Shown here: one piece after another, positions 4,275-49,262 of the stretch
Layout: each line of letters opens with the position of its first letter
Position numbering within the stretch: position 1 is the first letter of the stretch
NCBI GenBank assembly: GCA_964430275.1
Contig: CAYSGF010000027.1
Location: 8,133-72,132, forward strand
DNA from: an uncultured Gemmatimonadaceae bacterium
GTDB lineage: Bacteria; Gemmatimonadota; Gemmatimonadetes; Longimicrobiales; RSA9
Direction: 5' to 3'
Length of the DNA stretch: 64,000 nt
Made by a program: the position numbers and the translations under genes
Notes under the pieces: model-generated
Told to the model about the DNA's origin: nothing
Databases searched by the model: none
Seen by the model: the letters and a program-made list of their open reading frames with translations, nothing else

Positions 4275-4310
4275 GGGCGGGTGAGTCGCGACGCGGCTCA
4301 CCCGCCCTTT
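4275..4310. terminator. GC-rich hairpin between convergent genes (probable bidirectional terminator)
   Basis: Stem GGGCGGGTGAG (4275-4285) pairs with CTCACCCGCCC (4297-4307), followed by TTT. It touches the stop codon of the minus-strand cytochrome gene. Confidence 0.6.
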
Positions 4311-4780
4311 CATGCGCCATCCGGCGCCGACTGCTGCAGTGCCTCGGGCCGCAGCAGTGCGTCGATGTAGTACGCCACGGCGTCGATCTCCCTGAGACTC
4401 AGTCCCGCCACGCCCCAGGTCGGCATGCCTCGCGGGTGGCCGACAAAGATGCGACGGCGTATCGCGTCGAGGTCGCCGGCATGCGGCCAGTCCGGCTCGA
4501 CGAGCGACGGTACGTCGATCTGCTCGCCACGCACCTCCGCCGGACCTCCCCGCCCCAGGTATCCGTGGCAGCGACGGCAGCGTGCGGCGAACAGGTCGTT
4601 GCCGGCCGCCAGCCGCACGCTGTCTCCGTTCCAGGCGATGGTATCGAACATCGCCGGGTCGAACATCGAGTCCGCTTCCGCGACCTGCGCGGCGCGCGAC
4701 GGCGGCTCGAACTCGTGCGACTCGCACGCCGCCAGCGTCGCGGCGAAGAGCATCAGGGTGGGCGCGGCGGCAGGTCTCAT
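4310..4780 (-). CDS. monohaem c-type cytochrome, lipoprotein
   Basis: Single CRRCH motif and a downstream GMPTWG Met-ligand-like motif. Lipobox TLAAC. ATG overlaps the upstream stop (ATGA at 4777-4780). Confidence 0.8.
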   Translation of the reverse strand: MRPAAAPTLMLFAATLAACESHEFEPPSRAAQVAEADSMFDPAMFDTIAWNGDSVRLAAGNDLFAARCRRCHGYLGRGGPAEVRGEQIDVPSLVEPDWPHAGDLDAIRRRIFVGHPRGMPTWGVAGLSLREIDAVAYYIDALLRPEALQQSAPDGA

Positions 4781-5178
4781 GGATGGCCGGGAGGCAGACT
4801 GTCGCCCGCAGGGCTTTCCTCCGGATGGATCAGCGAGGCGCCCGGCGAGATCTCCTGCGTTCGCCGCATTGCGGACTCGGCAGCCTCGAGGTTGCCCAGC
4901 TGCCGCTCGACCATGTAGACGCCGAACCAGACGGCGGGCTCATCCGGTCCGGCTTCGCTCGCCGCATAGTAGTGCCGGCGCGCGCGCTCATAATCCTGCG
5001 CGCGAAATGCCGCATTGCCGCTGTCGAGCTGCGCCTGCACGACGGCCGGCAGCGCACGCGCTTCGACCCAGCTCGTCGAATCGATCGAGCCGGTCGCCTG
5101 GTCATCCGGCGGCCCGTCAGGGCCGCACGCCGCGACGACACCAATCGTCAGCACTGCGATTACCTGCCTGCCCGTCAT
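4777..5178 (-). CDS. TPR-repeat lipoprotein
   Basis: Lipobox VVAAC. Two TPR-like units (GNAAFRAQDYERARRHYYAA..., VYMVERQLGNLEAAESAMRR). ATGA overlaps at both ends (5175-5178 and 4777-4780). Confidence 0.7.
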   Translation of the reverse strand: MTGRQVIAVLTIGVVAACGPDGPPDDQATGSIDSTSWVEARALPAVVQAQLDSGNAAFRAQDYERARRHYYAASEAGPDEPAVWFGVYMVERQLGNLEAAESAMRRTQEISPGASLIHPEESPAGDSLPPGHP

Positions 5179-9783: not shown

Positions 9784-9852
9784 TGCCCTGTTCGTTCCAT
9801 CGACTCACGTCGCTGCGGGTGAAGCAGCAGCCGCTTCACCCGCTCGGCCGCA

Positions 9853-11304
9853 TCAATCGACGCCCAGCTCCCGCTTCAACGAGACCGTCGACGTCGCCGC
9901 GATCGGATAGTCCTCCTCGACCTGCTGGATGGAAGCGATCAGCAGCGCCTCCATGAGGAACGGGTTGTGGATCGCCGAGCCGTCGAAGCCGGTTGCGAGC
10001 TGATAATTGAACAGCGCGCCCTCACCAGTACTGTAGCGGCCGTCGCCGGCGTCGAACTCGGTCTCCGGGATCTGCTCGATCAGCGTGTTGAGCTGACCGG
10101 CCAGCAGGGCGATGCGCTGGCGCGCGACCTGGCGCAGGCTGCGCGCGACGGCTTCCGTGCCGTGGCAACCCGCACCCGTGCACGTCTGGAAGGTGCGCTC
10201 CGTATCCGCGCACTCGCCGCCCGCCTGCGGCACGCCCTGTTCGTCCAGGCAGGGGATCGCCTCGAACAGGTGACCCGTCGACTGCAGCACGAACTCGCCG
10301 GTGATCTGGTCCGTGACCTCGAAGCGGTTCACGTGGCAGCCGGCGCACAGCTGCGGATTCACTTCCGAGCCATGCGTTGCCGCGATGCGCGCGGTGTCAC
10401 CTTCGCCGCCGGGGAACGTGAGGTTGGGTGGCCACCAGCCGCCGTAGCCGAGCAGCACCGGCCCCTCGGGCGAGTGCGGTCCGCGCGACTGCGAGGCGAG
10501 GTCCGGCGTGCCGCGCTTGTGGTGGCACTTCATGCACAGGTTCTGCTCTTCGTTCGGCAGGTCCACCGGATAACGAAGCTGGCGGTCCGTATCGCTCGAA
10601 TGCGGATCGTGGCAGACGCCGCAGGTGATCGCCAGGTGATTGTCGGGCTGCGCGGTTTCCTCCTTCTCGAGGAAATCCGCACGGATGCCCCACGCCCGCA
10701 AGGCGCCCTCTCCCGAGTGGCAGCTCTCGCACTCGGCCCGGCCCGCGGCGGACGCCACCACCTGCCCGTGGCCCGACTGCTCCCACTCCTCGACGAACGG
10801 GTGGTGCGAGCCCTGGTGGCACTCACCGCAGCCGATCGTCAGGTCGAGACCGACGGCCAGGGGCGCGAGAGGAATGTTGTCATCGCCCGGATCGAGAATG
10901 TGGCTCAGTCCCGGACCGTGACAGCTCTCGCACTGGACGTTGTGGTAGCGCGTGTCCTCGACGGCTAGGAAGCCGCCCTCCTCGGTCGCGACATTGCCGA
11001 GCTGGTTCACCGTGTGGCAGCCTTCGCACGTCTCGGCCGCATGCCCGCTCGCCTGCAGAGTCGCCCATGCATCCGCGTGCGCGGTCTGCTCCCACTGCCC
11101 CTGGAAGCTCACGTGGCAGTTGCCACACACCGTCAGGTTCGTCTCTTCTTCGCTCAGACCGACAAACCCGCCGGCTCCGTCGGGCAGCTCGCCGACCAGA
11201 TCGCGATCCCGGAACACGATCCGCTCGTCCACGCACGCGCCGCCCGCCACGACCACGAGCGCCAGCACTGCCACACCGATCGTTCGCTGCACCTGACGTG
11301 TCAT
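9853..11304 (-). CDS. multihaem c-type cytochrome lipoprotein, 9 haem motifs
   Basis: Start moved to ATG 11304 (MTRQVQRTIGVAVLALVVVAGGAC, lipoprotein-type signal). 8 CxxCH plus CTGAGCH. About 100 aa of haem-free helical C-terminus. Confidence 0.9.
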   Translation of the reverse strand: MTRQVQRTIGVAVLALVVVAGGACVDERIVFRDRDLVGELPDGAGGFVGLSEEETNLTVCGNCHVSFQGQWEQTAHADAWATLQASGHAAETCEGCHTVNQLGNVATEEGGFLAVEDTRYHNVQCESCHGPGLSHILDPGDDNIPLAPLAVGLDLTIGCGECHQGSHHPFVEEWEQSGHGQVVASAAGRAECESCHSGEGALRAWGIRADFLEKEETAQPDNHLAITCGVCHDPHSSDTDRQLRYPVDLPNEEQNLCMKCHHKRGTPDLASQSRGPHSPEGPVLLGYGGWWPPNLTFPGGEGDTARIAATHGSEVNPQLCAGCHVNRFEVTDQITGEFVLQSTGHLFEAIPCLDEQGVPQAGGECADTERTFQTCTGAGCHGTEAVARSLRQVARQRIALLAGQLNTLIEQIPETEFDAGDGRYSTGEGALFNYQLATGFDGSAIHNPFLMEALLIASIQQVEEDYPIAATSTVSLKRELGVD

Positions 11305-11642
11305 ACATCCCCCGAAGGTGGGACGGTTACTGAACCCGCACCGACGAATCCACGACCCGCATACTGCCTGCAGCTGCGTCTTGAGACTGCGCCTCCAACT
11401 AGCGCACTGCAAGCCCCTGGCGCATCAGGAAAAGCACCCGACTCCTGTAGTCGAACGCCTCCGGTACATACCGAGGAGCGATCTGGACCATGCGTGTGGC
11501 CGCTCGCAGGACTGCCGGGCCGCACGATTCGCGCCGGTCAGCGCTCACACGCCGGACAATCGCCTTGCCGTTTGGGACGATATTGCGTTCGCGGAGGCGC
11601 GCCTGCGAAAAGCGCTGCGGCCGAATCACGCTCGTGCGTCGC

Positions 11643-12434
11643 TCAGGCGCGCGCCATGCGCGCCCGGCGCACGCCCGCCAGGTAATGCGCCCCGAGCAGG
11701 ATCAGCACGATCGCGAAGACGGCCCGCAGTGCTCCACCCGGCATCCCGAGCGCGAGCCGGCCGCCTGCCCAGGAGCCGGCGGCAATGCCGGGCACGAGGC
11801 CGAGCACGGCGTCGCGGCGAACGCTGCGGTGACGGAGGTGTGCGACGGTGCCGCTCGCGCCGGCGGGCACCATGGCGGCGAGCGACGTACCCTGTGCGAG
11901 GTGCTGTGTCATGCCGACGCCGATCACGAGCAGCGGCACCATGAGCGAGCCGCCGCCGACGCCGAGCAGCCCGGCAGCGGCGCCGACGATCAGACCGGTC
12001 GCGAGCAGAAACACGATCGTCCACGGGCCCTCGGGCGCGTGGAGCGCGAGCAGCTCGTCCTTGATCACGAGCAGGACCGCGGCGACGATCAGGAATGCAC
12101 CGAAGTAGCCGCGCAGGCGGAGTGCGGGGATGCGTCGCGAGTAACGCGCGGCGGTGTACGTCGAAGCGACGGAGATCGTTGCGAGCACGAGCGCGGTGCT
12201 CCAGTCGACGGCATCCTGGTTCGCATAGGTGAGTGCACCGGCGATCCCCGTCGCGACGACGCCGGCGAGGCTGGTCGCGTGCGCCTCGTGTTGGGTGAGG
12301 CGCGCCCAGCTGGTGAGCAGCGGAATCATCACGACGCCGCCGCCCAGCCCCACGAGCCCGCCGAACACGCCGGCGAGCGCACCGATGAAGAAAGACCGCG
12401 TCGTGCAGCGCCGCCATACCGGACCGTCGCTCAT
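11643..12434 (-). CDS. TauE/SafE family sulfite-exporter-like membrane protein
   Basis: Duplicated GGG(V/S)xMxPLL motifs in a multi-TM protein. ATGA overlap with the upstream copCD stop (12431-12434). Confidence 0.85.
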   Translation of the reverse strand: MSDGPVWRRCTTRSFFIGALAGVFGGLVGLGGGVVMIPLLTSWARLTQHEAHATSLAGVVATGIAGALTYANQDAVDWSTALVLATISVASTYTAARYSRRIPALRLRGYFGAFLIVAAVLLVIKDELLALHAPEGPWTIVFLLATGLIVGAAAGLLGVGGGSLMVPLLVIGVGMTQHLAQGTSLAAMVPAGASGTVAHLRHRSVRRDAVLGLVPGIAAGSWAGGRLALGMPGGALRAVFAIVLILLGAHYLAGVRRARMARA

Positions 12435-13714
12435 TCCGGCAGCGGCGTGAACGAGAGGGCGGCCGAGACGACGATGAGCCCGATGAACACCACGGTCTCG
12501 AGCCGCACCGAGGAGCGCAGGATCGCGCCGTCGCCATCCTTGGGCAGCGTCGCGATGATTCGGCGGTGGCGGTAGCCGAACGCGGCGAGCGCGATGAGCC
12601 CCGTCGCCTTCACGAGGACGACCCGCCCGTATCCCGTCTGCAGGAGAGCTGCCGGCGATCCGAGCAACACGAGCGCCTGCGACAGACCAGTCACTGCAAT
12701 GACGCCGAAGGACCAGAGTGCCGCGGTCGAAACGGCGCGCAGCTGCGGCAATCGAGCGGGGCCGCTACGCAGCATGCTCGACAGTGTGATGAGCCCGCCG
12801 AGCCAGACGGCGGCAGCGGCCATGTGCACCGCCCGCAGCGGGATCGCGAGAGCGGACGATACGGCCGCTGCGTGCCCGAGCGCACCGCCCGCCAGCACCG
12901 CGACGAACGCGAGCAGTGCCGCGGCACGCGCCGAGCGGGTCAGCACCCAGACGGCGAGGGCGGCCGCGGCCAGCACCATGCGGGCGAGCAGCGCCTTCCC
13001 CGTTGCGAGCTGCAGCGAAACCGACAGGTCCACGGTGCCCGCGACGTGCGTCGTCCACGTAACGAGCTCCGCGAAGACGGCGAACGGGGCCGCGAGCGCG
13101 AAGGCGGTGAGCAGCCGCTGCAGTGCGTCGGCGGCAGGTACCGAGCGGCTCGCGAACAGCAGACCACCGGCGAGCGCCAGCAGGAGTCCCGTACCCAGCG
13201 CGCGCAGGAGCGGCAGTATGGGCGCAAAATCCGTGGTCGATGGCGGCGGCGCTTCCACCACGAGGATCGGCGCAGCACGCGCGGAATCCGGGTCCGTCAT
13301 TGCCGGCGGCGACGGCACGGCTTCCGGCGACACGAGGAACGGGATTGCGCCACTCAGGACGTGGCCGTCCGCGGACGTGGTACGCCAGCGCAGCACGTGC
13401 GCGCCGGCACCGAGCGACGGCGCGGCTGCAACGATCACGCTGCCGTCGGCGCTGCCCGAGCGCGCGGCCAGTACCACGCTGTCGCGGTCGGGACGTACGA
13501 GCACGAGGCGAGTCGCGTCCACCATCACGCGAGCGCTGAACTCGAGACGTACGGTATCGAGCGGAAGGCGTAGCGTGTCGTCCTCCGCCGGCGTGGACGC
13601 ATCGAGCTGCGCGTGCAGAATGGTATGCGGAAGATTACTGCTGTCCCGTGCCGCGGAGAGCAGCACGAGACTCAGCGCCGGCAGCGCGAGCCAGGTACGT
13701 CGGTTCAGTGGCAT
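12431..13714 (-). CDS. CopC-CopD fusion copper resistance/transport protein (YcnJ-like)
   Basis: Signal peptide, then a CopC-like periplasmic domain (HAQLDASTPAEDDTL ... WRTTSADGH), then a multi-TM CopD-like domain. Confidence 0.8.
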   Translation of the reverse strand: MPLNRRTWLALPALSLVLLSAARDSSNLPHTILHAQLDASTPAEDDTLRLPLDTVRLEFSARVMVDATRLVLVRPDRDSVVLAARSGSADGSVIVAAAPSLGAGAHVLRWRTTSADGHVLSGAIPFLVSPEAVPSPPAMTDPDSARAAPILVVEAPPPSTTDFAPILPLLRALGTGLLLALAGGLLFASRSVPAADALQRLLTAFALAAPFAVFAELVTWTTHVAGTVDLSVSLQLATGKALLARMVLAAAALAVWVLTRSARAAALLAFVAVLAGGALGHAAAVSSALAIPLRAVHMAAAAVWLGGLITLSSMLRSGPARLPQLRAVSTAALWSFGVIAVTGLSQALVLLGSPAALLQTGYGRVVLVKATGLIALAAFGYRHRRIIATLPKDGDGAILRSSVRLETVVFIGLIVVSAALSFTPLPE

Positions 13715-23703: not shown

Positions 23704-25644
23704 TCAGCGCTCGTCCGACGCATCCGCGGTAATGCCGCTCAGCCGCCGGGCGATTTCGACCATGCGCACGAACTCCGCGCGGTAGCCGTTCGGATCGGCG
23801 CCGAGCGCACCGCGCGCCAGCGTCAGCACGTCACCGTAGCTCGTGGTGCCACGGTGCTCGGAATCGCGCAGCAGCATACCGAACGCCGCAACGGACGCCG
23901 CAAAGCGCAGGTCCTCGGATGCCTTGCTGCGTGGCGTGCGAACGGGCACCTCCAGCAGCCGGCTGGTCGTTCCGGTCGGCGGCTTGTAACGCAGCTTCAC
24001 GAACGCCAGCTCGGGGCCATTGCGCACGGCGTCGCCAGTGCGCTCCTGGTAGCGCAGCTCACCGGGCTCGCGGACCTCGACGGTGCCCTCGACGCCGACG
24101 GGCACGAGCTCGTACAGAGCCGTGACGGTGTGGCCTGCACCCAGCTCGCCAGCGTCCTTGCGGTCATCATCGAAATCTTCCGCGGCGAGCAGCCGGTTCT
24201 CGTAGCCGATCAGCCGATAGGAACGCACGTGTGCGGGGTTGAACTCGACCTGCAGCTTCACGTCCTTGGCAATCGTGACGAGGGTACCGCCCAGCTCGGT
24301 GACGAGGACCTTGCGTGCTTCCGCGAGATCATCAATGTACGCATAGTTGCCGTTCCCGTGGTCGGCCAGCGCCTCCATCTTCGAGTCCTTCAGGTTGCCC
24401 GTGCCGAAGCCGAGCACGGTCAGGAACGTGCCCTGCTCGCGCTTCGCCTCGATCAGCCGCCGCATCTCCGCATCGCTCGACACGCCGACGTTGAAGTCCC
24501 CGTCGGTGGCCAGGATCACGCGGTTGTTGCCGTTGCGCAGATGACTGGCGCGCGCGATGTCGTACGCGAGCCGGATCCCCGCTCCGCCCGCAGTCGAGCC
24601 GCCCGCCTCGAGGGCTTCGATCGCGTCCAGGATCTCACTCTTCTCGCTGCCGGGCGTCGACTCGAGAACCACGCCGGCACTGCCGGCGTAGACGACCAGC
24701 GCGACACGGTCCTGCGGCCGCAGCTCCTCGACGAGCAGCCGAAGCGCCTGCTTCAGCAACGGCAGCTTGTTCACTGGCGTCATCGAGCCGGATACGTCGA
24801 TGAGGAACACGAGATTGTTCGGTGGCAGATCGCTCATGTCGATGCGCCGCCCCTGCAGACTGATCCGAACGAGCTGATGCTGCGGCTGCCAGGGCGCCGA
24901 CATTGCCTCCGTCACCACCGCGAACGGCTCCTCGCCGCGCGGCTGCGCCACCCGGTAGGGGAAGTAGTTGACCATCTCCTCGATGCGGACTGCGTCCTTC
25001 GGCGGCAGCGCACCGTCCTTCAGGTAGCGACGGATGTTGCTGTATGATGCACGGTCGACGTCGATCGAGAACGTCGACAGCGGATTCGCGCGCACGGACA
25101 GGAACGCGTTCTCCTCGATCGCTGCGTACGATTCCGTGTTCCACGCCTCGCGGCGCAGACGGTAGGACTCGAGACCCGGTGGTGCAGGAGACACGGGCGG
25201 CATCGCGACGGAGCTCTGCATCGCTTCCGTACGCACGGCCGCTCGGTGCCTGCCCTCGCCGGGCAGCACTGGTGATTTGCTGGATGCATCCTGGGCCGTG
25301 ACGGCGAGTGTTTCGAGCGTCACGCCAGCCGGCGTGAGCGCGAAGTCGACCGCCAGCGAGTCACGGGTCAGCGCGAGCTGACGCTGCTGCGTCTCGTAGC
25401 CGATCGTCTGCGCCACCAGCGTGATCGTACTGCCACGCAGGGAAGCCGGCAGCTGCAGCCGGTACTCGCCGCCGGATCCGCTCAGGGTGCCGTGGTGCTG
25501 GCCGGCAACGAGAATCTGCACGCCGGCGACCGGCGTTCCCGCGCCCGCATCGGTCACGTGTCCCGTGACCACGACCGTACGAGTGTGCGCAGCACCCGCC
25601 GCCAGCAGGGCGAGCAGGGGGATGGCGAGGAGTGGTTTCATCAC
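23704..25644 (-). CDS. von Willebrand factor type A domain protein (YfbK-like) with N-terminal CarboxypepD_reg-like domain
   Basis: Signal peptide. A GHVTDAGAGTPVAGVQILV beta-sandwich. vWA MIDAS region (VFLIDVSGSM). Long conserved C-terminal domain. Confidence 0.85.
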   Translation of the reverse strand: MMKPLLAIPLLALLAAGAAHTRTVVVTGHVTDAGAGTPVAGVQILVAGQHHGTLSGSGGEYRLQLPASLRGSTITLVAQTIGYETQQRQLALTRDSLAVDFALTPAGVTLETLAVTAQDASSKSPVLPGEGRHRAAVRTEAMQSSVAMPPVSPAPPGLESYRLRREAWNTESYAAIEENAFLSVRANPLSTFSIDVDRASYSNIRRYLKDGALPPKDAVRIEEMVNYFPYRVAQPRGEEPFAVVTEAMSAPWQPQHQLVRISLQGRRIDMSDLPPNNLVFLIDVSGSMTPVNKLPLLKQALRLLVEELRPQDRVALVVYAGSAGVVLESTPGSEKSEILDAIEALEAGGSTAGGAGIRLAYDIARASHLRNGNNRVILATDGDFNVGVSSDAEMRRLIEAKREQGTFLTVLGFGTGNLKDSKMEALADHGNGNYAYIDDLAEARKVLVTELGGTLVTIAKDVKLQVEFNPAHVRSYRLIGYENRLLAAEDFDDDRKDAGELGAGHTVTALYELVPVGVEGTVEVREPGELRYQERTGDAVRNGPELAFVKLRYKPPTGTTSRLLEVPVRTPRSKASEDLRFAASVAAFGMLLRDSEHRGTTSYGDVLTLARGALGADPNGYRAEFVRMVEIARRLSGITADASDER

Positions 25645-25817
25645 GACCTCCGTGTGGGCAGCAGGCCGGCGTAGCAGAGTGCGCGGCCGGTCGATCTGCT
25701 GCTTTCACCCCGCAATGACGCCGGACCCTCTATTGCTTGCACATCCGCCTGCGCGTTTGCGGTCATCGAGGTCGGCGGGCATTATCCCGCAGCCACTTAC
25801 CCGAGACCCGCCGCCCC

Positions 25818-27335
25818 ATGAGTGACGCAGCGCCCACCAGCCTCCATGCCCTGCTCGCAGCTGCCGGCCTGCCGGCCGCAGGCCTCCCCGACCGCCAGGT
25901 GCACAGCATTACTGCGGATTCGCGGGAGGTGCGCCCGGGCTCCCTGTTCGTCGCGATTCCCGGCACGCGCGTGGATGGGCACCGCTTCGTTGCCGACGCC
26001 GCGCGCGCAGGCGCAGTGGCGGTGGTCCTGGAGCGGCTGCCCACCGGGCCGCTCGACCTGCCCATCCTGCGTGTCGACGACGCACGCAGCGCCATCGCCC
26101 GCCTCGCCGCCGCATGGCACGATCACCCCGCACGGCGGCTGCCCCTGATCGGGATCACCGGTACCGTCGGCAAGACCTCCGTGCTCACCATGGTCGAGGC
26201 GATCCTCAAGGAAGCGGGCATGCGCGTCGGCTCGATTGGCTCGCTGGGACTGCGCATCAACGGCAGCACCGTCGAGGAAAGCAGCTACACGGTGCCGGAG
26301 CCCCTCATGCTGCACCGGCAGCTGGCGCAGCTCGTGGCCGCGGACTGCGACGTGGGCGTCATGGAGGTGACGTCGCATGCGCTCGTGCAGCAGCGCGTCG
26401 CGGGAGTACAGTACGCGGCCGGCGTGTTCACGAACCTGGTGCCGCTCGAGCACGCGGAGTTCCATCGCAACTTCCGCGCATACGTGGAGGCGAAGACCCG
26501 CTTCTTCGACCACCTGGTGGACTGCGCGCCACTCGTGTACAACGCGGACGACCGCACGGTGCGCCGAATCGTTCCCGGCCCGTCCGTGTTACCTGTCGGG
26601 TGTGGCGCTGCGCGCACTGCCATGGTACGGACGGAAGCCGCCGAAGTGACGCCCGGCGGTACCACACTCGTGCTCGACGTGCGACGTCCGCTCCCGCGCC
26701 TCTCCGGTGACACCCTGCCAGAAGTGCAGCTGCCCCTGGAGCTGAAGCTGATCGGCCGCTCGAACGTGACGAATGCGACGCTCGCCGCCGCTACAGCACT
26801 CGTCGCAGGCGCGTCCGGCGCCGCCGTGCAGCGGGCACTCGCCATGCTGCCGGCGCCGCGCCGGCGTATGGAGGTCGTGCATCGGGGCGACTTCGTCGTG
26901 CTCGACGATACGGTCGGCCATCCGGACAGCGTGAGCGTTGTCTTCGAGACCGTCGAGCGGCTGGCACCACGCGCCATCCACGTGGCGTGGGCGGTGCGCG
27001 GGCAGCGCGGGGGCCGCATCAACCGCTACAACGCGGAGGCGCTCGCGATCTGGACTCGACGGCTTCCTGTCGCATCCCTGGTCGTCACGCGCAGCCGCGA
27101 GACCACCGATGAGCGCAACCGCGTCGATGACAAGGAGTACGCCGCGTTTCTCGGACCACTGCAGAAGGCGGGCATCGTGTTCGAGGCCGCTGACGACCTG
27201 CGGCCCGCGATCACGACGGTGCTCGACCGCGCCCGTGCAGGGGACGTCGTGCTGCTGCTCGGCGCACAGGGCATGAACGAGGGCGCCACGATCGCACGGG
27301 AGTGGCTGAGTGCCCACGCGTCGCCATCGGGGTGA
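25818..27335 (+). CDS. Mur ligase family protein (MurE-like paralogue)
   Basis: Start moved to ATG 25818. GITGTVGKTS P-loop and MEVTSHALVQQR. The canonical MurE DHLDYH region reads EHAEFH. It is not in a dcw cluster. Confidence 0.8.
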   Translation: MSDAAPTSLHALLAAAGLPAAGLPDRQVHSITADSREVRPGSLFVAIPGTRVDGHRFVADAARAGAVAVVLERLPTGPLDLPILRVDDARSAIARLAAAWHDHPARRLPLIGITGTVGKTSVLTMVEAILKEAGMRVGSIGSLGLRINGSTVEESSYTVPEPLMLHRQLAQLVAADCDVGVMEVTSHALVQQRVAGVQYAAGVFTNLVPLEHAEFHRNFRAYVEAKTRFFDHLVDCAPLVYNADDRTVRRIVPGPSVLPVGCGAARTAMVRTEAAEVTPGGTTLVLDVRRPLPRLSGDTLPEVQLPLELKLIGRSNVTNATLAAATALVAGASGAAVQRALAMLPAPRRRMEVVHRGDFVVLDDTVGHPDSVSVVFETVERLAPRAIHVAWAVRGQRGGRINRYNAEALAIWTRRLPVASLVVTRSRETTDERNRVDDKEYAAFLGPLQKAGIVFEAADDLRPAITTVLDRARAGDVVLLLGAQGMNEGATIAREWLSAHASPSG

Positions 27336-27401
27336 CGACGTGTACGATTGTTGCAAAGCGGCTCAGCCTCGCACACGCCGAGACCCGGCCGGAGGCAGAA
27401 C

Positions 27402-27887
27402 GTGGACAGACGACGCTGGATGCTGCTGCTCGCAGCTGCACTGATCGGCATTGCGATCGGACTCGGCAGCTTCACGTTCGTGTACGCGAAGGGCTATTCC
27501 TACCTCGGCACTGATCCGGCCGCCTGCGCCAACTGCCACATCATGGATGAGCACTACAGTGCGTGGCTGAAGTCGAGCCATCAGCCCGTCGCCACCTGCA
27601 ACGACTGCCACACGCCTCACGCGCTCGTGCCGAAGTATGCGACCAAGGCACGCAACGGCTTCTGGCACTCGTTCTACTTCACCACCGGCAACTTCCCCGA
27701 TCCGCTGCGCATCACCGAGCGCAATCACGAGATCGTCGAGCAGGCGTGTCGCGACTGCCACGAGGGGCTGGTCGAATCCATGCATGCCGGCGCCGATGCG
27801 CCCCCTGACGAGGTGCGCGGCTCCACCAGCAGAGCCGGAGTGGAATGCACACACTGCCATCGTTACGCAGGACACTGGGTGCGATGA
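27402..27887 (+). CDS. nrfH: cytochrome c nitrite reductase small subunit NrfH (NapC/NirT tetrahaem quinol dehydrogenase)
   Basis: One TM helix plus four CxxCH (CANCH, CNDCH, CRDCH, CTHCH). Start set to in-frame GTG 27402, with GGAGG at 27391-27395. Confidence 0.85.
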   Translation: MDRRRWMLLLAAALIGIAIGLGSFTFVYAKGYSYLGTDPAACANCHIMDEHYSAWLKSSHQPVATCNDCHTPHALVPKYATKARNGFWHSFYFTTGNFPDPLRITERNHEIVEQACRDCHEGLVESMHAGADAPPDEVRGSTSRAGVECTHCHRYAGHWVR

Positions 27888-27923
27888 CTACGCGTACGAG
27901 CACGGACTGAGGAGGCGCAGGGC

Positions 27924-29450
27924 ATGAACGACGCAGCAGACGGCCGACCCAAGATTCGCGCGGAGTGGCTCATCGTTGCGGCGATCGTTGCGGGCGTGGT
28001 CACACTCGGCCTGGCGGCGCTGCTTACGAACATCTTCGAGCGGCGGGCGGAAGCGCGCGACCCCTTCCATCGCGTGGTCGAGCTCAATGACAGCATCGTC
28101 GATCCGGCCGTCTGGGGTCAGAACTTCCCGATCCAGTACGACCTCTACAACAACACCGTCGACATGGTACGTACACGCTATGGCGGCAGCGAGGCACTTC
28201 CCCGCCAGCCGAGCGTCGAGGACCCGCGTGCGGAGGTCTCGACGTCACGGCTGGTCGAGGACCCGCGCCTGCGCGAGTTCTGGGCGGGCTATGCGTTCGC
28301 CGAGGATTTCCGTGAAGAGCGCGGTCACGCCTACATGTTCATCGATCAGGTGTTTACGGAGCGCCAGCAGGTGGTACAGCAGCCCGGTACCTGCCTGCAC
28401 TGCCACGCCTCCGTCTACACCGTGTACCGCGATGCCGGGGACGGCGACCTGATCGCCGGCTTCGAGCGCGTCAACCAGATGCCCTACCAGGAAGCAGCCG
28501 CGCTCGCCGAGCATCCGATCGCATGCATCGACTGCCACGACCCGGAAACGATGAACCTGCGCGTGACCCGCCCCGGCTTCATCGAAGGGATACGCTCGTA
28601 CATGACGGCGCGCGGCGATTCCAGCTTCGATGTGAACGAGGACGCAACCCGCCACGAGATGCGCACCTTCGTGTGTGCGCAGTGTCATGTCGAGTACTAC
28701 TTCCAGGGGCCCGAAAAGCGGCTCACGTACCCCTGGGCCAAGGGGCTGCGCGCCGACGAAATCCTCGCGTATTACGAGGAGACCGGCTTCAGCGACTGGA
28801 CGCACGCGATCAGCCAGGCGCCCGTCCTCAAGGCACAGCACCCCGAGTTCGAGCTGTACATGCAGGGCATCCACGCGCGCAGCGGTGTCATGTGTGCCGA
28901 TTGTCATATGCCCTACATCCGCACGGGCGCCATGAAGGTCAGCGACCACTGGGTGCGCAGCCCGCTGCTGAACGTGGACCGGGCGTGTCAGACCTGTCAC
29001 CGATGGTCGGAGGACGAACTGCGCAGCAGAGTGCATACCATGCAGGATCGCACATACCAGCTTCGGAATGTCGCGATCGATGCAGTGCTCGACCTGGCGA
29101 AGGCGATCCGCACGGAGTCCGCGAACGCAGCGGACGCAGCGCGCCTCACTGCAGCGCGCACCTACCAGCGACGCGCCCAGTTCCTGACGGACTTTATCGA
29201 AGCCGAGAACTCGATGGGTTTCCACGCCGACCAGGAAGCCGCGCGCGTGCTCGGCCTCGCGATCAACTACGCCCGACTCGGCTCGCTTGCGCTCTATGGC
29301 GACGCCATACCGCCCGCCGAGCTGCCGCTGATCCAGCCGCCGCCGCAAACGGTGGCGCCGGCCGAAGGACGACCCGGCGAGGTGTTCCGGCATCGCACCC
29401 AGCTGGATATGGCGCATCCGGAGAACAGGAACCAGGGCAATGATCCCTGA
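27924..29450 (+). CDS. nrfA: ammonia-forming pentahaem cytochrome c nitrite reductase NrfA (CxxCH-type active-site haem)
   Basis: Five haem motifs (CLHCH, CIDCH, CAQCH, CADCH, CQTCH). NrfA hallmarks: RGHAYMFIDQ, KAQHPEFE, AENSMGFHADQEA. N-terminal signal anchor. Confidence 0.9.
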   Translation: MNDAADGRPKIRAEWLIVAAIVAGVVTLGLAALLTNIFERRAEARDPFHRVVELNDSIVDPAVWGQNFPIQYDLYNNTVDMVRTRYGGSEALPRQPSVEDPRAEVSTSRLVEDPRLREFWAGYAFAEDFREERGHAYMFIDQVFTERQQVVQQPGTCLHCHASVYTVYRDAGDGDLIAGFERVNQMPYQEAAALAEHPIACIDCHDPETMNLRVTRPGFIEGIRSYMTARGDSSFDVNEDATRHEMRTFVCAQCHVEYYFQGPEKRLTYPWAKGLRADEILAYYEETGFSDWTHAISQAPVLKAQHPEFELYMQGIHARSGVMCADCHMPYIRTGAMKVSDHWVRSPLLNVDRACQTCHRWSEDELRSRVHTMQDRTYQLRNVAIDAVLDLAKAIRTESANAADAARLTAARTYQRRAQFLTDFIEAENSMGFHADQEAARVLGLAINYARLGSLALYGDAIPPAELPLIQPPPQTVAPAEGRPGEVFRHRTQLDMAHPENRNQGNDP

Positions 29451-29542
29451 GGAACACTTCCTGCCCGCTGCGCGTACTGCAGGCCGCCCCGCATAATGCA
29501 TCGAGTGGGCGGAACACGTATCCAGCATCATGGAGTGGCTTC

Positions 29543-30430
29543 ATGCTTCGGAAACGCTTGCTGTTCGCACCTCTGGCCGCAGCGGCGCTGGTCCTGGGCG
29601 CCTGCGAGGACACCTCTGGACCCGGTGACGGCGACGCACACCTCAGGGTGCTGCTGACGGATGCGCCGGCGGACTACCTCGAGAGTGCCGTCGTCGAGAT
29701 CGGCCGTATCGAGCTTCTGCCGGCCGACGAGGATGACGAGCGCGTCGTGATCGTCGAGGATGGCGGGGTATTCGACCTCCTCGACCTGCAGCATGGTGTG
29801 ACCGCGGAGCTCGCCTCGCTGACGCTCGAGCCAGGCGCGTATCGCGAGATGCGCATGATCGTGGAGAGCGCGGAGCTGACGCTCGCCGAGCCGTACACGT
29901 TCGAGGACGGTTCGATCACGCAGTCGCTCAACGTGCCGAGCGGCGCGCAGAGCGGCATCAAGGTCCGGCTGCATGACGGCGAGGAGGACGGCGATGACGG
30001 TGTCGAGATCCGGCCGGGTGAGACCGTGCTGGTCGTCGATTTCGATGTCTCGCAGAACTTCGTAATGCAGGGGAACGCCGAGACGCCGGCAGGCATCAAG
30101 GGCTTCCTCTTCACGCCGCGGCTGCATGCCGTCGTCCGCGACGTGGCCGGCTCGATCTCCGGTACCGTCAGTGCACCGGCGGAAGTCGAGCTGGAAGGCT
30201 TGCAGGTCACCGCCCTGCCGGTCGGAGCGGATGCGGATGACACCCCCCGCACGGCACTCGTCGAGGCGGACGGCACATACACGATCCACTTCGTCGCCCC
30301 GGACGTCTACGACGTCACGGTCGCTGCGCCCGCCGGGTACGTGGCCACGACCGTGGAGGTGGATGTGGACGAGGACGAGGACGTCAGCGATGTCGATCTG
30401 GAGATAAGTGCCGAGGAGAGCAGCGGCTGA
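29543..30430 (+). CDS. DUF4382-like lipoprotein with C-terminal CarboxypepD_reg-like beta-sandwich
   Basis: Lipobox LVLGAC. LRVLLTDAP ... FDLLDLQ pattern. GGAG-like RBS upstream of ATG 29543. Confidence 0.75.
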   Translation: MLRKRLLFAPLAAAALVLGACEDTSGPGDGDAHLRVLLTDAPADYLESAVVEIGRIELLPADEDDERVVIVEDGGVFDLLDLQHGVTAELASLTLEPGAYREMRMIVESAELTLAEPYTFEDGSITQSLNVPSGAQSGIKVRLHDGEEDGDDGVEIRPGETVLVVDFDVSQNFVMQGNAETPAGIKGFLFTPRLHAVVRDVAGSISGTVSAPAEVELEGLQVTALPVGADADDTPRTALVEADGTYTIHFVAPDVYDVTVAAPAGYVATTVEVDVDEDEDVSDVDLEISAEESSG

Positions 30431-30453
30431 GCCGGCTCTGCACCGGAATGAGA

Positions 30454-30490
30454 AACGGGGGCGGATCGCACGATCCGCCCCCGTTCGTTC
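30454..30490 (+). terminator. rho-independent terminator
   Basis: AACGGGGGCGGATCG (30454-30468) pairs with CGATCCGCCCCCGTT (30471-30485), followed by CGTTCGTT. It starts 24 nt after the DUF4382 stop. Confidence 0.8.
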
Positions 30491-30608
30491 GTTGAGCCGC
30501 TTCCCGCACTGCGCCTGGCGCTTGCATTGTCGCGGCCCGGTCGCGCAGGTTGTTGCCCGCCGTTACAATGCCAGCACCCGCTGACCCGGATCCGATGAGA
30601 CGACGGCC

Positions 30609-32333
30609 GTGAGTGCAGTCCTGTCAGCCGCGATCCCGATCGCCATGGCCGTGATCGGCGGCCTCGGCATCTTCATGCTCGGCATGAAGTTCATGTCGGA
30701 GGGGGTGCAGGCGGTGGCCGGCGGCTCGCTGCGGCGGCTCATCAGCCTGGTGACCGACAACCGGGTCATGGCGGTCGGCGTCGGAACGCTCGTGACGATG
30801 ATGGTGCAGTCGTCGTCCGTCACGACCGTAATCGTCGTCGGGCTCGTGAACGCCGGCCTGATGCAGCTCCACCAGGCGGTCGGCGTGATGGTCGGCGCGA
30901 ACATCGGCACGACGATCACCGGCTGGATCCTGGTCCTGAAGATCGGCGTGTACGGGCTGCCGCTCCTTGGCATATCCGCACTCGTCTACCTGTTCACCCG
31001 CTCCGATCGCCCCCGCTTCATTGCCATGGCCGTCATGGGCCTGGGCATGATCTTCTTCGGACTGGAGCTGATGAAGGACGGCTTCGCCCCGATGGCGGAC
31101 AACCCCCGCTTCGTCGAGGCGTTCTCCTGGTTCCAGGCCGACAGCTACTTCGGTGTGCTGAAGAGCGTCGCCGTCGGCTGCATCCTGACGGTGCTCGTAC
31201 AGAGCAGCTCCGCGACGCTCGGCATCACGATCGGTCTCGCGTCCACCGGCGTCATCCCCTTCACGACCGCCGCTGCGCTCGTGCTGGGCGAGAACATCGG
31301 TACCACGATCACGGTCCTGCTCGCGTCGATCGGCGGAACCACGGATGCGAAGCGCGCCGCCTATGCGCACGTCCTCTTCAATGTCTTCGGTGTGCTCTGG
31401 ATCACTGCGGTCTTCCAGTGGTATATCCGCGTGATCGCCGGCCTCGTGACGGGCCTGCAGGGACTCGATCCGATGCTGCTCACGCTGCCGACCGCCCCCA
31501 GCCCCGAGGTCTTCGCCGCCGTCGTCACGGCTGGCATCGCACTGACGCACACCGGCTTCAATGTCACGAATACCCTGCTCTTCCTGCCCTTCCTGCACCG
31601 CTACGCCGGGTTACTCGAACGGATCGTGCCGGAGCCGGCGCACAAGGAAGTGTCGAAGCTGCGCCACCTCGATGCGCGCGGCGTCGACTCGCCCGTCCTC
31701 GGCGTCGAGGCGAGCCGCCGCGAGGTCGTGCAGATGGCCACCGGCCCCGTCAAGATGATGGACTGGATCCGCACCATCGCCTTCGACGAGCCGGACAACG
31801 AAGAGCTCATCAAGAAGACGTTCCACCGTGAAGAGATCCTCGATGACGTGCAGAAGGAGGTCGTCGCGTTCCTCACGGAAGTGCTCGACGCGAACGTGCC
31901 CTACGCGGTCGCGGAAGAGGGCCGCCAGCAGTTCCGTCTCGCCCACGAGTTCGAGTCGATCAGCGACCGCCTCGCCAGCGTGCTGAAGAGCTACATCCGC
32001 TTGCGTGACCAGAAACTGGAGCTGCCGCCCGAACAGCGCGAGGAGTTGCTCACCCTCCATGACAGTGTCGCGGACTTCCTGCGCCGTGTCACCGAGGCCT
32101 ACGGCGAGCGTCGAACCATCAGCGACGCCGAAGCGGGCGCCGCGAACGGCCGGATCTCCCAGCAGGTCCGCCGGCTGCGCAATGAGCACCTGCAGCGCAT
32201 GACCGACGGCCACATCGACCCGAACATCAGCCTCGTGTTCACCGGCCTGCTCACCGAGTACCGGCGCATTCGCGCACACATCACCAACGTCCACGAGGCC
32301 GCCGCTGGCATGAAGGTCGCCGGCATCGCCTGA
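30609..32333 (+). CDS. Na/Pi cotransporter family protein with PhoU-like C-terminal domain
   Basis: GTG start at 30609. Duplicated Na/Pi-cotransporter motifs (QSSSVTTVIVVGL and QSSSATLGITIGL). Helical PhoU-like tail. Confidence 0.9.
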   Translation: MSAVLSAAIPIAMAVIGGLGIFMLGMKFMSEGVQAVAGGSLRRLISLVTDNRVMAVGVGTLVTMMVQSSSVTTVIVVGLVNAGLMQLHQAVGVMVGANIGTTITGWILVLKIGVYGLPLLGISALVYLFTRSDRPRFIAMAVMGLGMIFFGLELMKDGFAPMADNPRFVEAFSWFQADSYFGVLKSVAVGCILTVLVQSSSATLGITIGLASTGVIPFTTAAALVLGENIGTTITVLLASIGGTTDAKRAAYAHVLFNVFGVLWITAVFQWYIRVIAGLVTGLQGLDPMLLTLPTAPSPEVFAAVVTAGIALTHTGFNVTNTLLFLPFLHRYAGLLERIVPEPAHKEVSKLRHLDARGVDSPVLGVEASRREVVQMATGPVKMMDWIRTIAFDEPDNEELIKKTFHREEILDDVQKEVVAFLTEVLDANVPYAVAEEGRQQFRLAHEFESISDRLASVLKSYIRLRDQKLELPPEQREELLTLHDSVADFLRRVTEAYGERRTISDAEAGAANGRISQQVRRLRNEHLQRMTDGHIDPNISLVFTGLLTEYRRIRAHITNVHEAAAGMKVAGIA

Positions 32334-36023: not shown

Positions 36024-37862
36024 TCAGATCACGCCATGGAGGGACCCGCCCGGGGCGCCGAGACGATCCACGCGACGCTCGACGGCGGGATCGGCGGCGA
36101 GCACCGGGGCGTGATGCGGCTTGATGCGCGCGTCGATGATGAGCGGACCGCGGCAGCCCCAGTGCTTGTGCTCGATGAATGCATCCACGCCGTGTATGTC
36201 GTGTGACGGGTTGCTGCGCGTGAACGTCACCCAGAGGAAGTCGTTCAAGGAACGCGCTGTGAATGCCGCATCGTCACAGAGCACGAGTAGTGGCAGACCG
36301 GCGAGGTCATGACGGGAGAGCTCCGCCGTGAGTGCTGCGATCTCGCGTGCCGCCGCGTCGTACGTCGTGAATGGCGGCCCCTCGAGGGCGACGACGCCGG
36401 GCATCACCAGCGCGCTTCCATCGAACGGTCGCGGCAACCGCACGTGGTTGGGGACCTCGTCCCACAGCTCCCGGCGGCGCGGACCCGCCGCCGCGATCGC
36501 CACCTTCGAGCCCGCATTCAGCCCGGTGCCGCTGTAGTCGAGTGTGTCGATCGTCGTGTTCGTCTGGAAGTGCAGGTCCCTCGTCAGGTCGATCCGCTCC
36601 AGCATGTGTCGCAGGAACGCTGCGACGTTGTGAATGTCGAGCGTCGGATCATCCTCGTGCGCGCAGATCCACAGGTACTTCGCGAGGCTGAGCTGATTCT
36701 TGCCGAAGATGTGGTTCGCAATCGTCAGGATCTCCTGCGGCCGGCGCTCCCGCTCGTACGGCGTATAGCGCTCGCTGCCGATTGCGAGCAGCAGTGGGTG
36801 CACGCCCGCGGCGTCCACGGCATGCACGGCCTGCAGCCCGGGAATCTCCTGCGGGATCGCATCGCCCGTGAGCTCGTGGATGAGCGCGCCGAAGCTCGTG
36901 TCTTCCTGCGGCGGCCGACCGACCACGGTAAACGGCCAGATCGCGCCCGGACGGTGGTGCACCTGATGCACACGCATGACCGGGTAGTCGTGCACCAGGC
37001 TGTAGTAGCCGAGGTGATCACCGAACGGCCCCTCCGGCCTCGTATCGTGCGGCTGGACCGTGCCCGTGATCACGAAATCGGCATCGGAGGAGATGCAGAA
37101 GCCGGCATCGTCACGTGTGTAGCGAAAAGCACGGTTGCCGAGCACCCCCGCGAACACGAGCTCGGGCAGTCCTTCCGGCAGCGGCATGACGGCAGCCAGC
37201 GTATGAGCGGGCGGCCCGCCGACGAAGATGCTTACCCGCAGCGGCTGGCCTGCCGCATTCGCGCGGGCCTGGTGCACGCCGATACCACGGTGGATCTGGT
37301 AGTGGAGGCCGATCTCGCGATCCTGCTCGTAGGCGTTGCCACCGAGCTGCACACGGTACATCCCGAGGTTCGCGCCCATCACACCCGGCCTGGCGACGTC
37401 CTCCGTGTACACCTGCGGCAGCGTGATGAACGGACCACCGTCGTCCGGCCAGTGCACGATCTGCGGTAGATCGCTGATGCGCGCCGTGCCCTGCAGGACC
37501 GGCGGCGTGCGTCGCACGCGGCGCGGCAGCGCAGCCGTCGCCAGTGCCGCGGCGGATGCATGCTGAATCGGATGGCGCAGTGCGCGCATCGGATCGTACT
37601 TCAGCCCGACGAGCGTCTGTACACGCGCCAGTGTGTCGCGGAAGAGGAAGCGCGCCCGCTCGAGCGTGCCGAACAGGTTGGACACCGCAGGGAATCGGCA
37701 GCCTTTCACATTCTCGTAGAGCACGGCGGGACCGCCTGCGGCGAACACCCGCTGATGGATCGCCGCCATCTCGAGCCGCGGGTCGACCTCTTCCCGGACG
37801 CGCACGAGATGACCGTTCGCTTCCAGGTCGCGGACGCACGCTTCGAGGGTGGAGTAGCCCAT
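36024..37862 (-). CDS. UbiD family decarboxylase
   Basis: 612-aa ORF. The N-terminus (LEACVRDLEANGHLVRVREEVDPRLEMAAIHQRV) and body are typical of UbiD-family (prenylated-FMN) decarboxylases. Confidence 0.9.
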   Translation of the reverse strand: MGYSTLEACVRDLEANGHLVRVREEVDPRLEMAAIHQRVFAAGGPAVLYENVKGCRFPAVSNLFGTLERARFLFRDTLARVQTLVGLKYDPMRALRHPIQHASAAALATAALPRRVRRTPPVLQGTARISDLPQIVHWPDDGGPFITLPQVYTEDVARPGVMGANLGMYRVQLGGNAYEQDREIGLHYQIHRGIGVHQARANAAGQPLRVSIFVGGPPAHTLAAVMPLPEGLPELVFAGVLGNRAFRYTRDDAGFCISSDADFVITGTVQPHDTRPEGPFGDHLGYYSLVHDYPVMRVHQVHHRPGAIWPFTVVGRPPQEDTSFGALIHELTGDAIPQEIPGLQAVHAVDAAGVHPLLLAIGSERYTPYERERRPQEILTIANHIFGKNQLSLAKYLWICAHEDDPTLDIHNVAAFLRHMLERIDLTRDLHFQTNTTIDTLDYSGTGLNAGSKVAIAAAGPRRRELWDEVPNHVRLPRPFDGSALVMPGVVALEGPPFTTYDAAAREIAALTAELSRHDLAGLPLLVLCDDAAFTARSLNDFLWVTFTRSNPSHDIHGVDAFIEHKHWGCRGPLIIDARIKPHHAPVLAADPAVERRVDRLGAPGGSLHGVI

Positions 37863-37971
37863 CAGATTCGTCGCATCGCTGACGCTGTGCTCATGCCGGG
37901 TTCATCCTCCATGGGAGACGTCCGGTTTCCGGCGTTTGTCGAGTAACGCGGGTTCGTGGCGTCTGCAGGCT

Positions 37972-38254
37972 GCCGGTACAACATCTTCACCACGGAGCCC
38001 GCGGAGCGCACACAGTCATCATTCGCTGAAGACGAAGACTGCGCGGGCGTGCCCGGCGATACCGACGCCTGCTCGTGATCACCATCCGCATTTTTTTCTG
38101 TCAACATACGGCTGCGAACGTTCCGTGCGCGTCGTCGCCAGCCCGGCGGGTCACCAACCAGGAAGCCCGGTCCCTGCTCGACCCCGCAGATACGTCCTCC
38201 GCCGCGAACCCTCTGCGTGCTCCGCGCGCTCCGTGGTGAAAACGCTGTTCCGGC
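37972..38254. repeat. MITE-like element, copy 1 (about 283 bp, long terminal inverted repeats)
   Basis: Left arm GCCGGTACAACATCTTCACCACGGAGCCCGCGGAGCGCAC (37972-38011) is the inverted match of the right arm GTGCTCCGCGCGCTCCGTGGTGAAAACGCTGTTCCGGC (38217-38254). The interior aligns with copy 2 at 42313-42580 (shared core TCAACAyACGGCyGCGAACGTTCsGTGCGCG). Confidence 0.8.
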
Positions 38255-38344
38255 ACGCTGACACGCCGAGCACGCCGAGCACGCCGACGCGCCCGCCAGG
38301 TGCGAGCCCGGCCTGACCGCGAGACCGGGCCCGCACTCTCACCC

Positions 38345-39265
38345 TCAGCTGCAGCAGTCCGGACCGCAGCACGCGGACGAAGAGGCTACAGGCAGCGCAC
38401 CGGGTGTCGCAACCGCAGCCGTGGACCCACCGGCCATCGCATGCTCCGCCGACACCGGCTTGCGCGCCCGAACGAACGCGGACATGAAGCGCCCCTGCAC
38501 CGCTTCCGCGACGGCGTCCACCTCCAACCCCGCCTCCTCGAGAAACGCACGCGCATCCTCGATGTCGTAGATGCGCGTCGGCTCCAGGCTCGCGGCCTCG
38601 AAGCCCGCCTCCTGCAGCAGCGCCTCGAACTGCCGCTCCTCCAGCGCACCCGCGACACACCCGACCCACAGCTCCAAGCTCCGCCGCACTTCCGCAGGTA
38701 CTTCACCACGCACGACGACGTCGGAGACCGCGAACCGCCCGCCCGGCTTCAGCACCCGGAACGCCTCGCGCAGTACCTGCCGCTTGTCCGCCGACAGGTT
38801 GATCACGCAGTTCGAGATGATCACGTCCACGGACGCGTCCGGCAACGGAATCTGCTCGATCTCACCCTTCAGGAACTCGACGTTCTCCGCCCCCGCCGCC
38901 GCCGCATTGCGACGCGCCAGCGCCAACATGTCATCCGTCATGTCCAGGCCGTACGCCTTGCCCGTCGGTCCGACGCGCTTCGCCGAGAGCAGCACGTCGA
39001 TGCCGCCCCCGCTTCCCAGGTCCAGCACCACCTCGCCCTCCTTCAGCTCCGCCAGCGCCGTCGGATTCCCGCACCCGAGCGACGCCAGCACGGCATCCGC
39101 CGGCAGCGTCGACGTCGTCACCGCATCGTACAGGTCCCGCGTGATCGGATCCGTCGAGCCACAGCCGCACGACGTGCCGCAGCAGCTTCCCTTCTCACCC
39201 TCGGCCACGCGCCGCGCTGCCTCCCCGTACTTCTCCCGTACCACTGCCTTCACATCCGCGCTCAT
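38345..39265 (-). CDS. arsM: arsenite S-adenosylmethionine methyltransferase ArsM
   Basis: SAM motif VLDLGSGGGID. Conserved Cys pairs (SCCG, GCGNP, NCVINL). Cys-rich tail ACCGPDCCS. AGGAG RBS upstream. Confidence 0.9.
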   Translation of the reverse strand: MSADVKAVVREKYGEAARRVAEGEKGSCCGTSCGCGSTDPITRDLYDAVTTSTLPADAVLASLGCGNPTALAELKEGEVVLDLGSGGGIDVLLSAKRVGPTGKAYGLDMTDDMLALARRNAAAAGAENVEFLKGEIEQIPLPDASVDVIISNCVINLSADKRQVLREAFRVLKPGGRFAVSDVVVRGEVPAEVRRSLELWVGCVAGALEERQFEALLQEAGFEAASLEPTRIYDIEDARAFLEEAGLEVDAVAEAVQGRFMSAFVRARKPVSAEHAMAGGSTAAVATPGALPVASSSACCGPDCCS

Positions 39266-39276
39266 CGTTCTCTCCT

Positions 39277-49261: not shown

Positions 49262-49262
49262 G

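Follow-up and report, generated by a model that had tools for sequence, protein, structure and literature searches.

The nrfHA locus

We analysed a 64,000-nucleotide stretch of contig CAYSGF010000027.1 from an uncultured member of the Gemmatimonadota (the whole stretch, with a G+C content of 67.9%, is referred to as the 64-kb window). We focus on two neighbouring open reading frames (ORFs) on its forward strand, at positions 27402-29450, which encode the quinol dehydrogenase NrfH followed by the cytochrome c nitrite reductase NrfA. The haem-1 motif of this NrfA, CLHCH, carries a histidine at the position of the proximal lysine of the canonical CxxCK motif. A preliminary description, made from the letters of the DNA and its ORF translations, had read the two genes as a CxxCH-type nrfHA pair for nitrite ammonification, and this reading is supported here by alignment, motif count, fold and residue conservation.

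The first gene, nrfH (27402..27887, forward strand), encodes a membrane-anchored tetrahaem protein of 161 amino acids and most plausibly starts at the GTG at 27402, which is preceded by GGAGG 7 nucleotides upstream. The N-terminus of the protein is positively charged and leads into a single hydrophobic, transmembrane helix, followed by the four haem motifs CANCH (27525-27539), CNDCH (27597-27611), CRDCH (27747-27761) and CTHCH (27846-27860). The ORF coordinates, the four CxxCH motifs and the single transmembrane helix are as given in the preliminary description. Against the NCBIfam equivalog TIGR03153, NrfH reaches 161.4 bits (cut-off 134.2), and it is also matched by the Pfam family NapC/NirT. 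Its first motif extends to CANCHIM and is thus of the CxxCHxM form; when the protein is aligned to NrfH of Desulfovibrio vulgaris (2J7A chain C), the equivalents of Met49 and Lys82 are retained. By alignment, a histidine within NGFWHS (residues ~85-90) stands where D. vulgaris NrfH has Asp89, the residue distal to the haem of the quinol site, and at least 90% of 74 clade NrfH sequences share this histidine.

The second gene, nrfA (27924..29450, forward strand), encodes 508 amino acids. It is separated from nrfH by 36 nucleotides that include a GAGGAGG ahead of the ATG start codon at 27924. The protein contains five CxxCH motifs and no CxxCK motif. In order, CLHCH, CIDCH, CAQCH, CADCH and CQTCH align with haems 1-5 of the NrfA proteins of Escherichia coli and Wolinella succinogenes.

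Family membership and fold of NrfA

NrfA matches the Pfam family PF02335 (Cytochrom_C552) over residues 60-457 (E = 1.1e-127; 427 bits against a cut-off of 24.1). A sequence search also recovers all solved pentahaem NrfA chains (E = 2.4e-66 to 1.7e-50), and octahaem nitrite reductases match more weakly (E = 1e-31 to 8e-22). The fold gives the same ranking. For an AlphaFold model built from 51 sequences (mean predicted local distance difference test score, pLDDT, of 73.9; predicted template modelling score, pTM, of 0.74), Foldseek ranks 1-26 are all pentahaem NrfA (E = 5e-19 to 1e-14; target-normalised TM-scores of 0.61-0.71), with the octahaem enzymes ranking after them. The five CxxCH motifs, the PF02335 match and the precedence of the pentahaem structures bear out the earlier assignment of this NrfA as pentahaem.

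The scores against the NCBIfam NrfA equivalogs NF008339 and TIGR03152, models built on lysine-type enzymes, are far below the respective cut-offs (274.7 against 595 and 214 against 692.5), which fits a divergent clade. Both ORFs are intact, and the ratio of nonsynonymous to synonymous substitution rates (dN/dS) of nrfA, computed against eight relatives, is 0.15-0.32, indicating purifying selection.

The N-terminus of NrfA carries a hydrophobic helix in the AlphaFold model (residues 13-45, 27960..28058, forward strand) with the juxtamembrane sequence LLTNIFER; L33-I37 and R40 are invariant in the 51 sequences. This helix could be a signal peptide, but a membrane anchor that stays uncleaved is more likely. 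The clade consensus ERQQEAR places a glutamine at position -3 of the would-be AXA cleavage site, which suggests that the helix is retained in the membrane and not cut off. At the other end, the C-terminal tail (29340-29450, residues ~473-508) is proline-rich and predicted to be disordered (pLDDT < 50). It contains a PPQTVxP sequence that is partly conserved in the Longimicrobiales relatives and missing from more distant clade members.

The haem-1 motif and the catalytic pocket

The CLHCH motif lies at 28392..28406 (forward strand, as are all the positions in this section), exactly where the preliminary description had placed the first haem site. We aligned NrfA pairwise with HMMER to the NrfA proteins of D. 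vulgaris, W. succinogenes, Geobacter lovleyi, Geobacter metallireducens and Shewanella oneidensis, and in a MAFFT alignment to those of E. coli (MG1655) and W. succinogenes, in which the W. succinogenes residues K134, E217, Y218, K274, Q276 and H277 were verified to stand at their published positions. CLHCH falls in the same columns as CWNCK of D. vulgaris, CWTCK of W. succinogenes, CWSCK of E. coli and S. oneidensis, and CLTCK of Geobacter. Its homology to the haem-1 CxxCK motif, on which the earlier interpretation hinged, thus holds column for column against solved NrfA proteins. H161 occupies the position of the haem-1 proximal ligand, equivalent to W. succinogenes K134 and E. coli K126.

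The catalytic residues are all in place. The catalytic arginine is R147 (28362..28364), within FTERQQ, equivalent to W. succinogenes R114 and E. coli R106 in an invariant column of the MAFFT alignment, and matched to the same arginine of W. succinogenes in the HMMER alignment to 1FS9. Directly after the haem-3 motif CAQCH (28674-28688) come the calcium ligand E257 and the catalytic tyrosine Y258 (28692..28697), equivalent to W. succinogenes E217/Y218 and E. coli E215/Y216. The stretch K303-A-Q305-H306 (28830..28841) contributes the lysine and glutamine of the calcium site and the catalytic histidine, equivalent to W. succinogenes K274/Q276/H277 and E. coli K261/Q263/H264. The four calcium ligands, E257, Y258 (through its carbonyl), K303 (carbonyl) and Q305, are therefore all conserved, and the protein is of the KxQH calcium-dependent type as that motif has been defined (PMC10716430). 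The retention of the catalytic pocket had been claimed at the outset, and the triad on the distal side of haem 1 (R147, Y258 and H306) and the calcium ligands both align and are invariant in 199 relatives.

One detail of the earlier account needs correction. It had named RGHAY and KAQHPEFE as the signatures of the catalytic pocket. KAQHPEFE stands, as it holds K303, Q305 and H306. RGHAY is a conserved motif, but its arginine, R133 (28320-28322), is separate from the catalytic R147 and is not itself catalytic. The slip is an error of detail and leaves the conclusion of that account unchanged.

A further residue, K338 (28935..28937), aligns with Lys331 of D. vulgaris NrfA (HMMER alignments to 2VR0 and 2J7A), the lysine that ligates haem 4 of NrfH in the NrfHA complex (PMC8840924). 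H161, R147, E257, Y258, K303, Q305, H306 and K338 are each 100% conserved in the 199 relatives. Only three lysines, K265, K303 and K338, are conserved in at least 97% of these clade members. K303 and K338 are also found in both of the lysine-type enzymes compared; K265 is present in E. coli too, and its counterpart in W. succinogenes is a tryptophan. No conserved lysine specific to the clade was found among the 199 relatives, and there is therefore no candidate for a remote lysine ligand. From the lack of such a lysine and from the C. jejuni structure described below, we infer that H161 of CLHCH serves as the proximal haem-1 ligand.

Relatives and placement in the CxxCH clade

An identical protein (100%) is already present at NCBI. 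The next best matches there are 70-84% identical and, where named, come from metagenome-assembled genomes (MAGs) of Longimicrobiales or other Gemmatimonadota, and the closest named relatives of the host are Longimicrobiales. The named close homologues are annotated by NCBI as 'ammonia-forming cytochrome c nitrite reductase subunit c552'. All 120 of the closest proteins listed have five haem motifs with CxxCH at haem 1 (CLHCH in 114 of them).

A scan of species-representative genomes returned 326 relatives, of which the best 80 loci were analysed. These belong to Gemmatimonadota, Acidobacteriota (Vicinamibacterales and Thermoanaerobaculia), Rhodothermales, a Phycisphaerae MAG and Myxococcota, and they include one isolate, a Corallococcus sp. 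(Myxococcota; 63% identity). Every one of the 80 loci has CxxCH at haem 1 and nrfH immediately upstream of nrfA. Two contigs titled 'uncultured Bifidobacterium sp.' (L049) and 'uncultured Acidimicrobiia bacterium' (L068) carry nrfHA genes 69% identical to those of the window; these labels look doubtful.

Among representatives of 50%-identity clusters, the nearest full-length sequences have CxxCH, and CxxCK appears from ~48% identity down to ~34%. We placed the protein in a neighbour-joining tree of 55 representatives, a crude method, applied to a set without the Campylobacter jejuni and Anaeromyxobacter dehalogenans references. As the earlier assignment to a CxxCH clade would predict, the window NrfA falls within the CxxCH cluster, in a core group recovered in 179 of 200 bootstraps.

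This clade has been described before. Saghai et al. (2023) screened about a million genomes and found the CXXCH clade of NrfA to be monophyletic in a maximum-likelihood tree, taxonomically diverse and calcium-dependent; about 90% of soil metagenomic nrfA read placements fall within it (PMC10716430). The preliminary description had called it a minority clade, which is true of cultured and characterised enzymes but not of soil, where the clade accounts for that ~90% of nrfA reads (PMC10716430). According to a 2025 review, all-CXXCH NrfA proteins partner with NrfH, and those of C. jejuni and A. dehalogenans carry out dissimilatory nitrate reduction to ammonium (DNRA; PMC12285233). A 1.6 Å structure of C. 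jejuni NrfA (July 2026) shows the iron of haem 1 coordinated by His154 of the CMNCH motif at a distance of 2.26 Å, with the Arg/Tyr/His triad and the calcium site conserved; the enzyme has an activity of 1382 U/mg, above that of the W. succinogenes enzyme, and an engineered K134H variant of the latter is impaired (PMC13562315). Among Protein Data Bank entries to April 2026, we found no CxxCH-type NrfA, all 13 distinct NrfA sequences being of the CxxCK type. NrfAH is known from the Gemmatimonadota, in 2-10% of 326 genomes (PMC9426454) and in 8 of 245 MAGs (PMC11316326).

Genomic neighbourhood and cytochrome maturation

The immediate neighbours of nrfHA are unrelated to nitrogen metabolism. By Pfam annotation, a vWA/YfbK protein (23704-25644, reverse strand) and a Mur-ligase-family protein (25737-27335, forward strand) lie upstream, and a DUF4382 lipoprotein (29543-30430) and an Na/Pi cotransporter (30609-32333), both on the forward strand, lie downstream. 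The vWA, Mur ligase and Na/Pi transporter genes recur in only one of the 80 related loci (L002), so these neighbours are not functionally linked to nrfHA. Clustering of the flanking ORFs across the 80 loci gave no universally associated partner gene besides nrfH. Since the pairing of nrfH with nrfA is kept and the flanks are not, the conserved unit is a two-gene module. In 10 of the 80 loci a multicopper-oxidase-like ORF lies within 8 kb of nrfHA, and 16 have a histidine kinase there; neither association is seen in the window.

A tryptophan-rich WWD motif marks haem lyases of the CcsA/CcmF/NrfE/NrfI type. No ORF with this motif was found anywhere in the 64-kb window, and the Pfam scan of 45 window ORFs detected no member of the Ccm, Ccs, NrfBCD, Nap or Nar families. 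The preliminary description had noted that neither a dedicated lyase gene nor nrfBCD adjoins the pair, and the Pfam annotation of the neighbours agrees. Because all five haem sites of NrfA are standard CxxCH motifs, a general maturation system would suffice.

Among the 80 related loci, a WWD protein occurs in the flanks of just one, from a Gemmatimonadales MAG (L077), where the order over 7296-13588 is nrfH, nrfA, an FGGY sugar kinase gene, ccmE and ccmF. We considered this protein as a dedicated NrfE/NrfI-type lyase and rejected it, as it is a general CcmF beside CcmE and the sugar kinase gene stands between it and nrfA. System I (Ccm) is thus in use in this relative at least; the 2025 review expected System II in organisms with nrfHA (PMC12285233).

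Comparison with known systems

Among solved structures, the best match is NrfHA of D. vulgaris (2J7A, 2VR0; E = 2.4e-66). The two systems share the nrfH-nrfA pair, the CxxCHxM motif and Lys82 equivalent of NrfH, and the equivalent of NrfA Lys331 (K338 in the window protein). They differ in the haem-1 motif (CWNCK, with lysine ligation, against CLHCH), in the replacement of NrfH Asp89 by a conserved histidine in the window clade, and in the loop before haem 1, which is ~4 residues shorter in the window NrfA. Compared with the E. coli and W. succinogenes enzymes, the window NrfA lacks 6 residues of the same loop and has a 7-residue insertion after haem 1. The E. coli NrfABCDEFG and W. succinogenes NrfHAIJ systems have a catalytic subunit of the same family, with a triad and calcium ligands identical to those of the window NrfA. 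However, both combine CxxCK with dedicated lyase genes (nrfEFG and nrfI, respectively) that are absent from the window, and E. coli uses NrfBCD, likewise absent from the window, in place of NrfH.

The window NrfA resembles that of C. jejuni (CMNCH) in being pentahaem with all five motifs CxxCH, in its triad and calcium site (E, Y, K, Q), in having an NrfH partner and in the absence of a dedicated CxxCK lyase, for the window host within 64 kb. In contrast, the C. jejuni enzyme, as described, is a 73-kDa protein with an extended C-terminal domain and three calcium sites, and belongs to a different phylum. The distance from the catalytic arginine to the ligand histidine is 25 residues in C. jejuni and 14 in the window NrfA. 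From the CXXCH clade as published (PMC10716430), with which it shares the CxxCH haem 1, the KxQH motif and an origin in soil-type phyla, the window NrfA shows no substantive difference; it is a further member, with 78-84% identity to MAG proteins of other Longimicrobiales and of Gemmatimonadaceae.

Proposed function and alternative explanations

We consider it highly probable that the two genes form a self-contained nrfHA operon whose histidine-ligated NrfA reduces nitrite to ammonium. NrfH, held in the membrane, would oxidise (mena)quinol at its methionine-ligated haem 1, and the electrons would run along its four haems. NrfA would dock on NrfH, with K338 acting as the equivalent of the Desulfovibrio lysine that ligates NrfH haem 4, and would pass the electrons via its four bis-histidine haems to the catalytic haem 1. 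There, in a pocket formed by R147, Y258 and H306, nitrite would be reduced to ammonium in a six-electron reaction. Calcium bound by E257, Y258, K303 and Q305 would stabilise the pocket, and H161 of CLHCH would be the proximal ligand of haem 1 in place of the CxxCK lysine. The five haems would be attached by general cytochrome c maturation, with no need for an NrfEFG or NrfI lyase.

No observation conflicts with this proposal, but several points weigh against it. A scan of 26900-30700 for sigma-70 promoters and terminators gave nothing above shuffled background, and a search for FNR/CRP-type sites (TTGAT-N4-ATCAA, up to two mismatches) gave none upstream of nrfH, so that the operon stands without a promoter-like or FNR-like site found upstream of it. 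Among the scanned window genes, neither a nitrate reductase nor any further gene of the nitrogen cycle was detected, and a complete pathway from nitrate to ammonium is therefore unproven. By its sub-cut-off NCBIfam scores, the protein is a divergent member of its family. In the neighbour-joining tree, the CxxCH cluster as a whole is weakly supported (91 of 200 bootstraps), and a single CxxCK sequence falls inside it, close to the base.

Some of these points could suggest a protein from another multihaem family (an octahaem nitrite reductase, or a protein of the Hao-like or MccA/OTR type) or a decaying pseudogene, as the NCBIfam NrfA equivalogs score below cut-off and octahaem enzymes do match, if weakly. 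We give this next to no credence. The protein has exactly five haem motifs at NrfA spacing, every pentahaem NrfA structure outranks the octahaem enzymes in both sequence and fold, the ORFs are intact with dN/dS of 0.15-0.32, and the nrfH partner is kept in all 80 loci. The preliminary description had reasoned that an absent triad would point to an octahaem or other MCC-family enzyme; the triad is present, the calcium site is intact and the pentahaem fold ranks first. Sequence ranking, active-site alignment, dN/dS and fold ranking together refute both variants. It is also very improbable, though slightly less so, that a lysine elsewhere in the chain ligates haem 1 and makes the enzyme functionally lysine-type despite its CxxCH motif, an arrangement that the 2025 review lists as an unresolved possibility for CXXCH NrfA proteins (PMC12285233). 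Two of the conserved lysines already have other known roles, K303 in the calcium site and K338 as the ligand of NrfH haem 4, and no lysine is specific to the 199 clade members. In the C. jejuni structure, it is the motif histidine, His154, that is bound to the iron (PMC13562315). On lysine conservation in the 199 members and on that structure, we rejected a remote lysine ligand.

The main live alternative concerns the role of the enzyme, respiration or detoxification, and not its identity. The same protein could serve mainly to detoxify nitrite, nitric oxide (NO) or hydroxylamine under nitrosative stress, a role that has been put forward for C. jejuni NrfA. The nrfHA pair stands isolated between housekeeping genes unrelated to it, and neither a nitrate reductase nor a formate dehydrogenase occurs in the 64 kb, which would suit such a role. 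Gemmatimonadota are mostly aerobes. Moreover, NO, hydroxylamine and sulfite are further substrates of NrfA enzymes (PMC8840924; PMC13562315), and nitrate and nitrite have been described as terminal acceptors of infrequent use in this phylum (PMC9426454). On the other hand, the coupling of the enzyme to the quinol pool through NrfH is the respiratory arrangement, a nitrate reductase may lie elsewhere in the genome, and in A. dehalogenans a CXXCH NrfA sustains DNRA (PMC12285233). The two roles are also compatible and not mutually exclusive. On balance, we regard detoxification as the main job as unlikely, if well within reason, and favour nitrite ammonification fed by quinol, with the electron donor, the ammonium product and a respiratory role each probable readings of the conserved residues and of the NrfH partner.

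Other features of the window

A cluster of c-type cytochrome genes lies on the reverse strand at 4310-11424. It comprises a monohaem cytochrome c (4310-4939) and three multihaem ORFs with 16 (5175-6713), 18 (8143-9804) and 8 (9853-11424) CxxCH motifs, together with an ORF of 561 amino acids (6683-8368), which is without a match in Pfam and may encode a porin-like partner. The cluster corresponds to the 'conduit operon' that had been placed 16 kb from the nrfHA pair; the multihaem cluster is indeed present and ends at 11424, 15,978 nucleotides upstream of nrfH. On the other side, genes for a UbiD-family decarboxylase and a UbiE-like methyltransferase (36024-39274, reverse strand), 6.6-10 kb downstream of nrfA, are candidates for quinone biosynthesis. 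Further along, a gene pair for a SusD-like protein and a TonB-dependent, SusC-like receptor (47939-52256, reverse strand) forms an uptake system in the style of Bacteroidota, here within a genome that is Gemmatimonadota-like.

Implications

The finding is not new in kind. The CxxCH clade has been described, NrfAH is known in the Gemmatimonadota and the C. jejuni member has been solved structurally, so the window adds one sequence to a clade whose phylogeny and ecology have already been mapped (PMC10716430). Its members dominate soil nrfA, but almost none outside Campylobacter and Anaeromyxobacter has been cultured or studied biochemically. The sub-clade of Gemmatimonadota and Acidobacteriota may have a mechanism distinct from those of C. 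jejuni NrfA and of the lysine-type enzymes, a suggestion that we find quite doubtful. The features that might point to it are the invariant and probably uncleaved LLTNIFER helix, the shorter loop before haem 1, the 7-residue insertion and the change from aspartate to histidine on the distal side of NrfH haem 1. If it were true, the differences could lie in NrfH and membrane tethering, in substrate preference or in the product spectrum (e.g. nitrous oxide, N2O, or NO), and they would matter because the clade dominates soil nrfA. For the organism itself, the nrfHA pair marks a Gemmatimonadota genome as that of a potential nitrite ammonifier, which would retain nitrogen rather than lose it.

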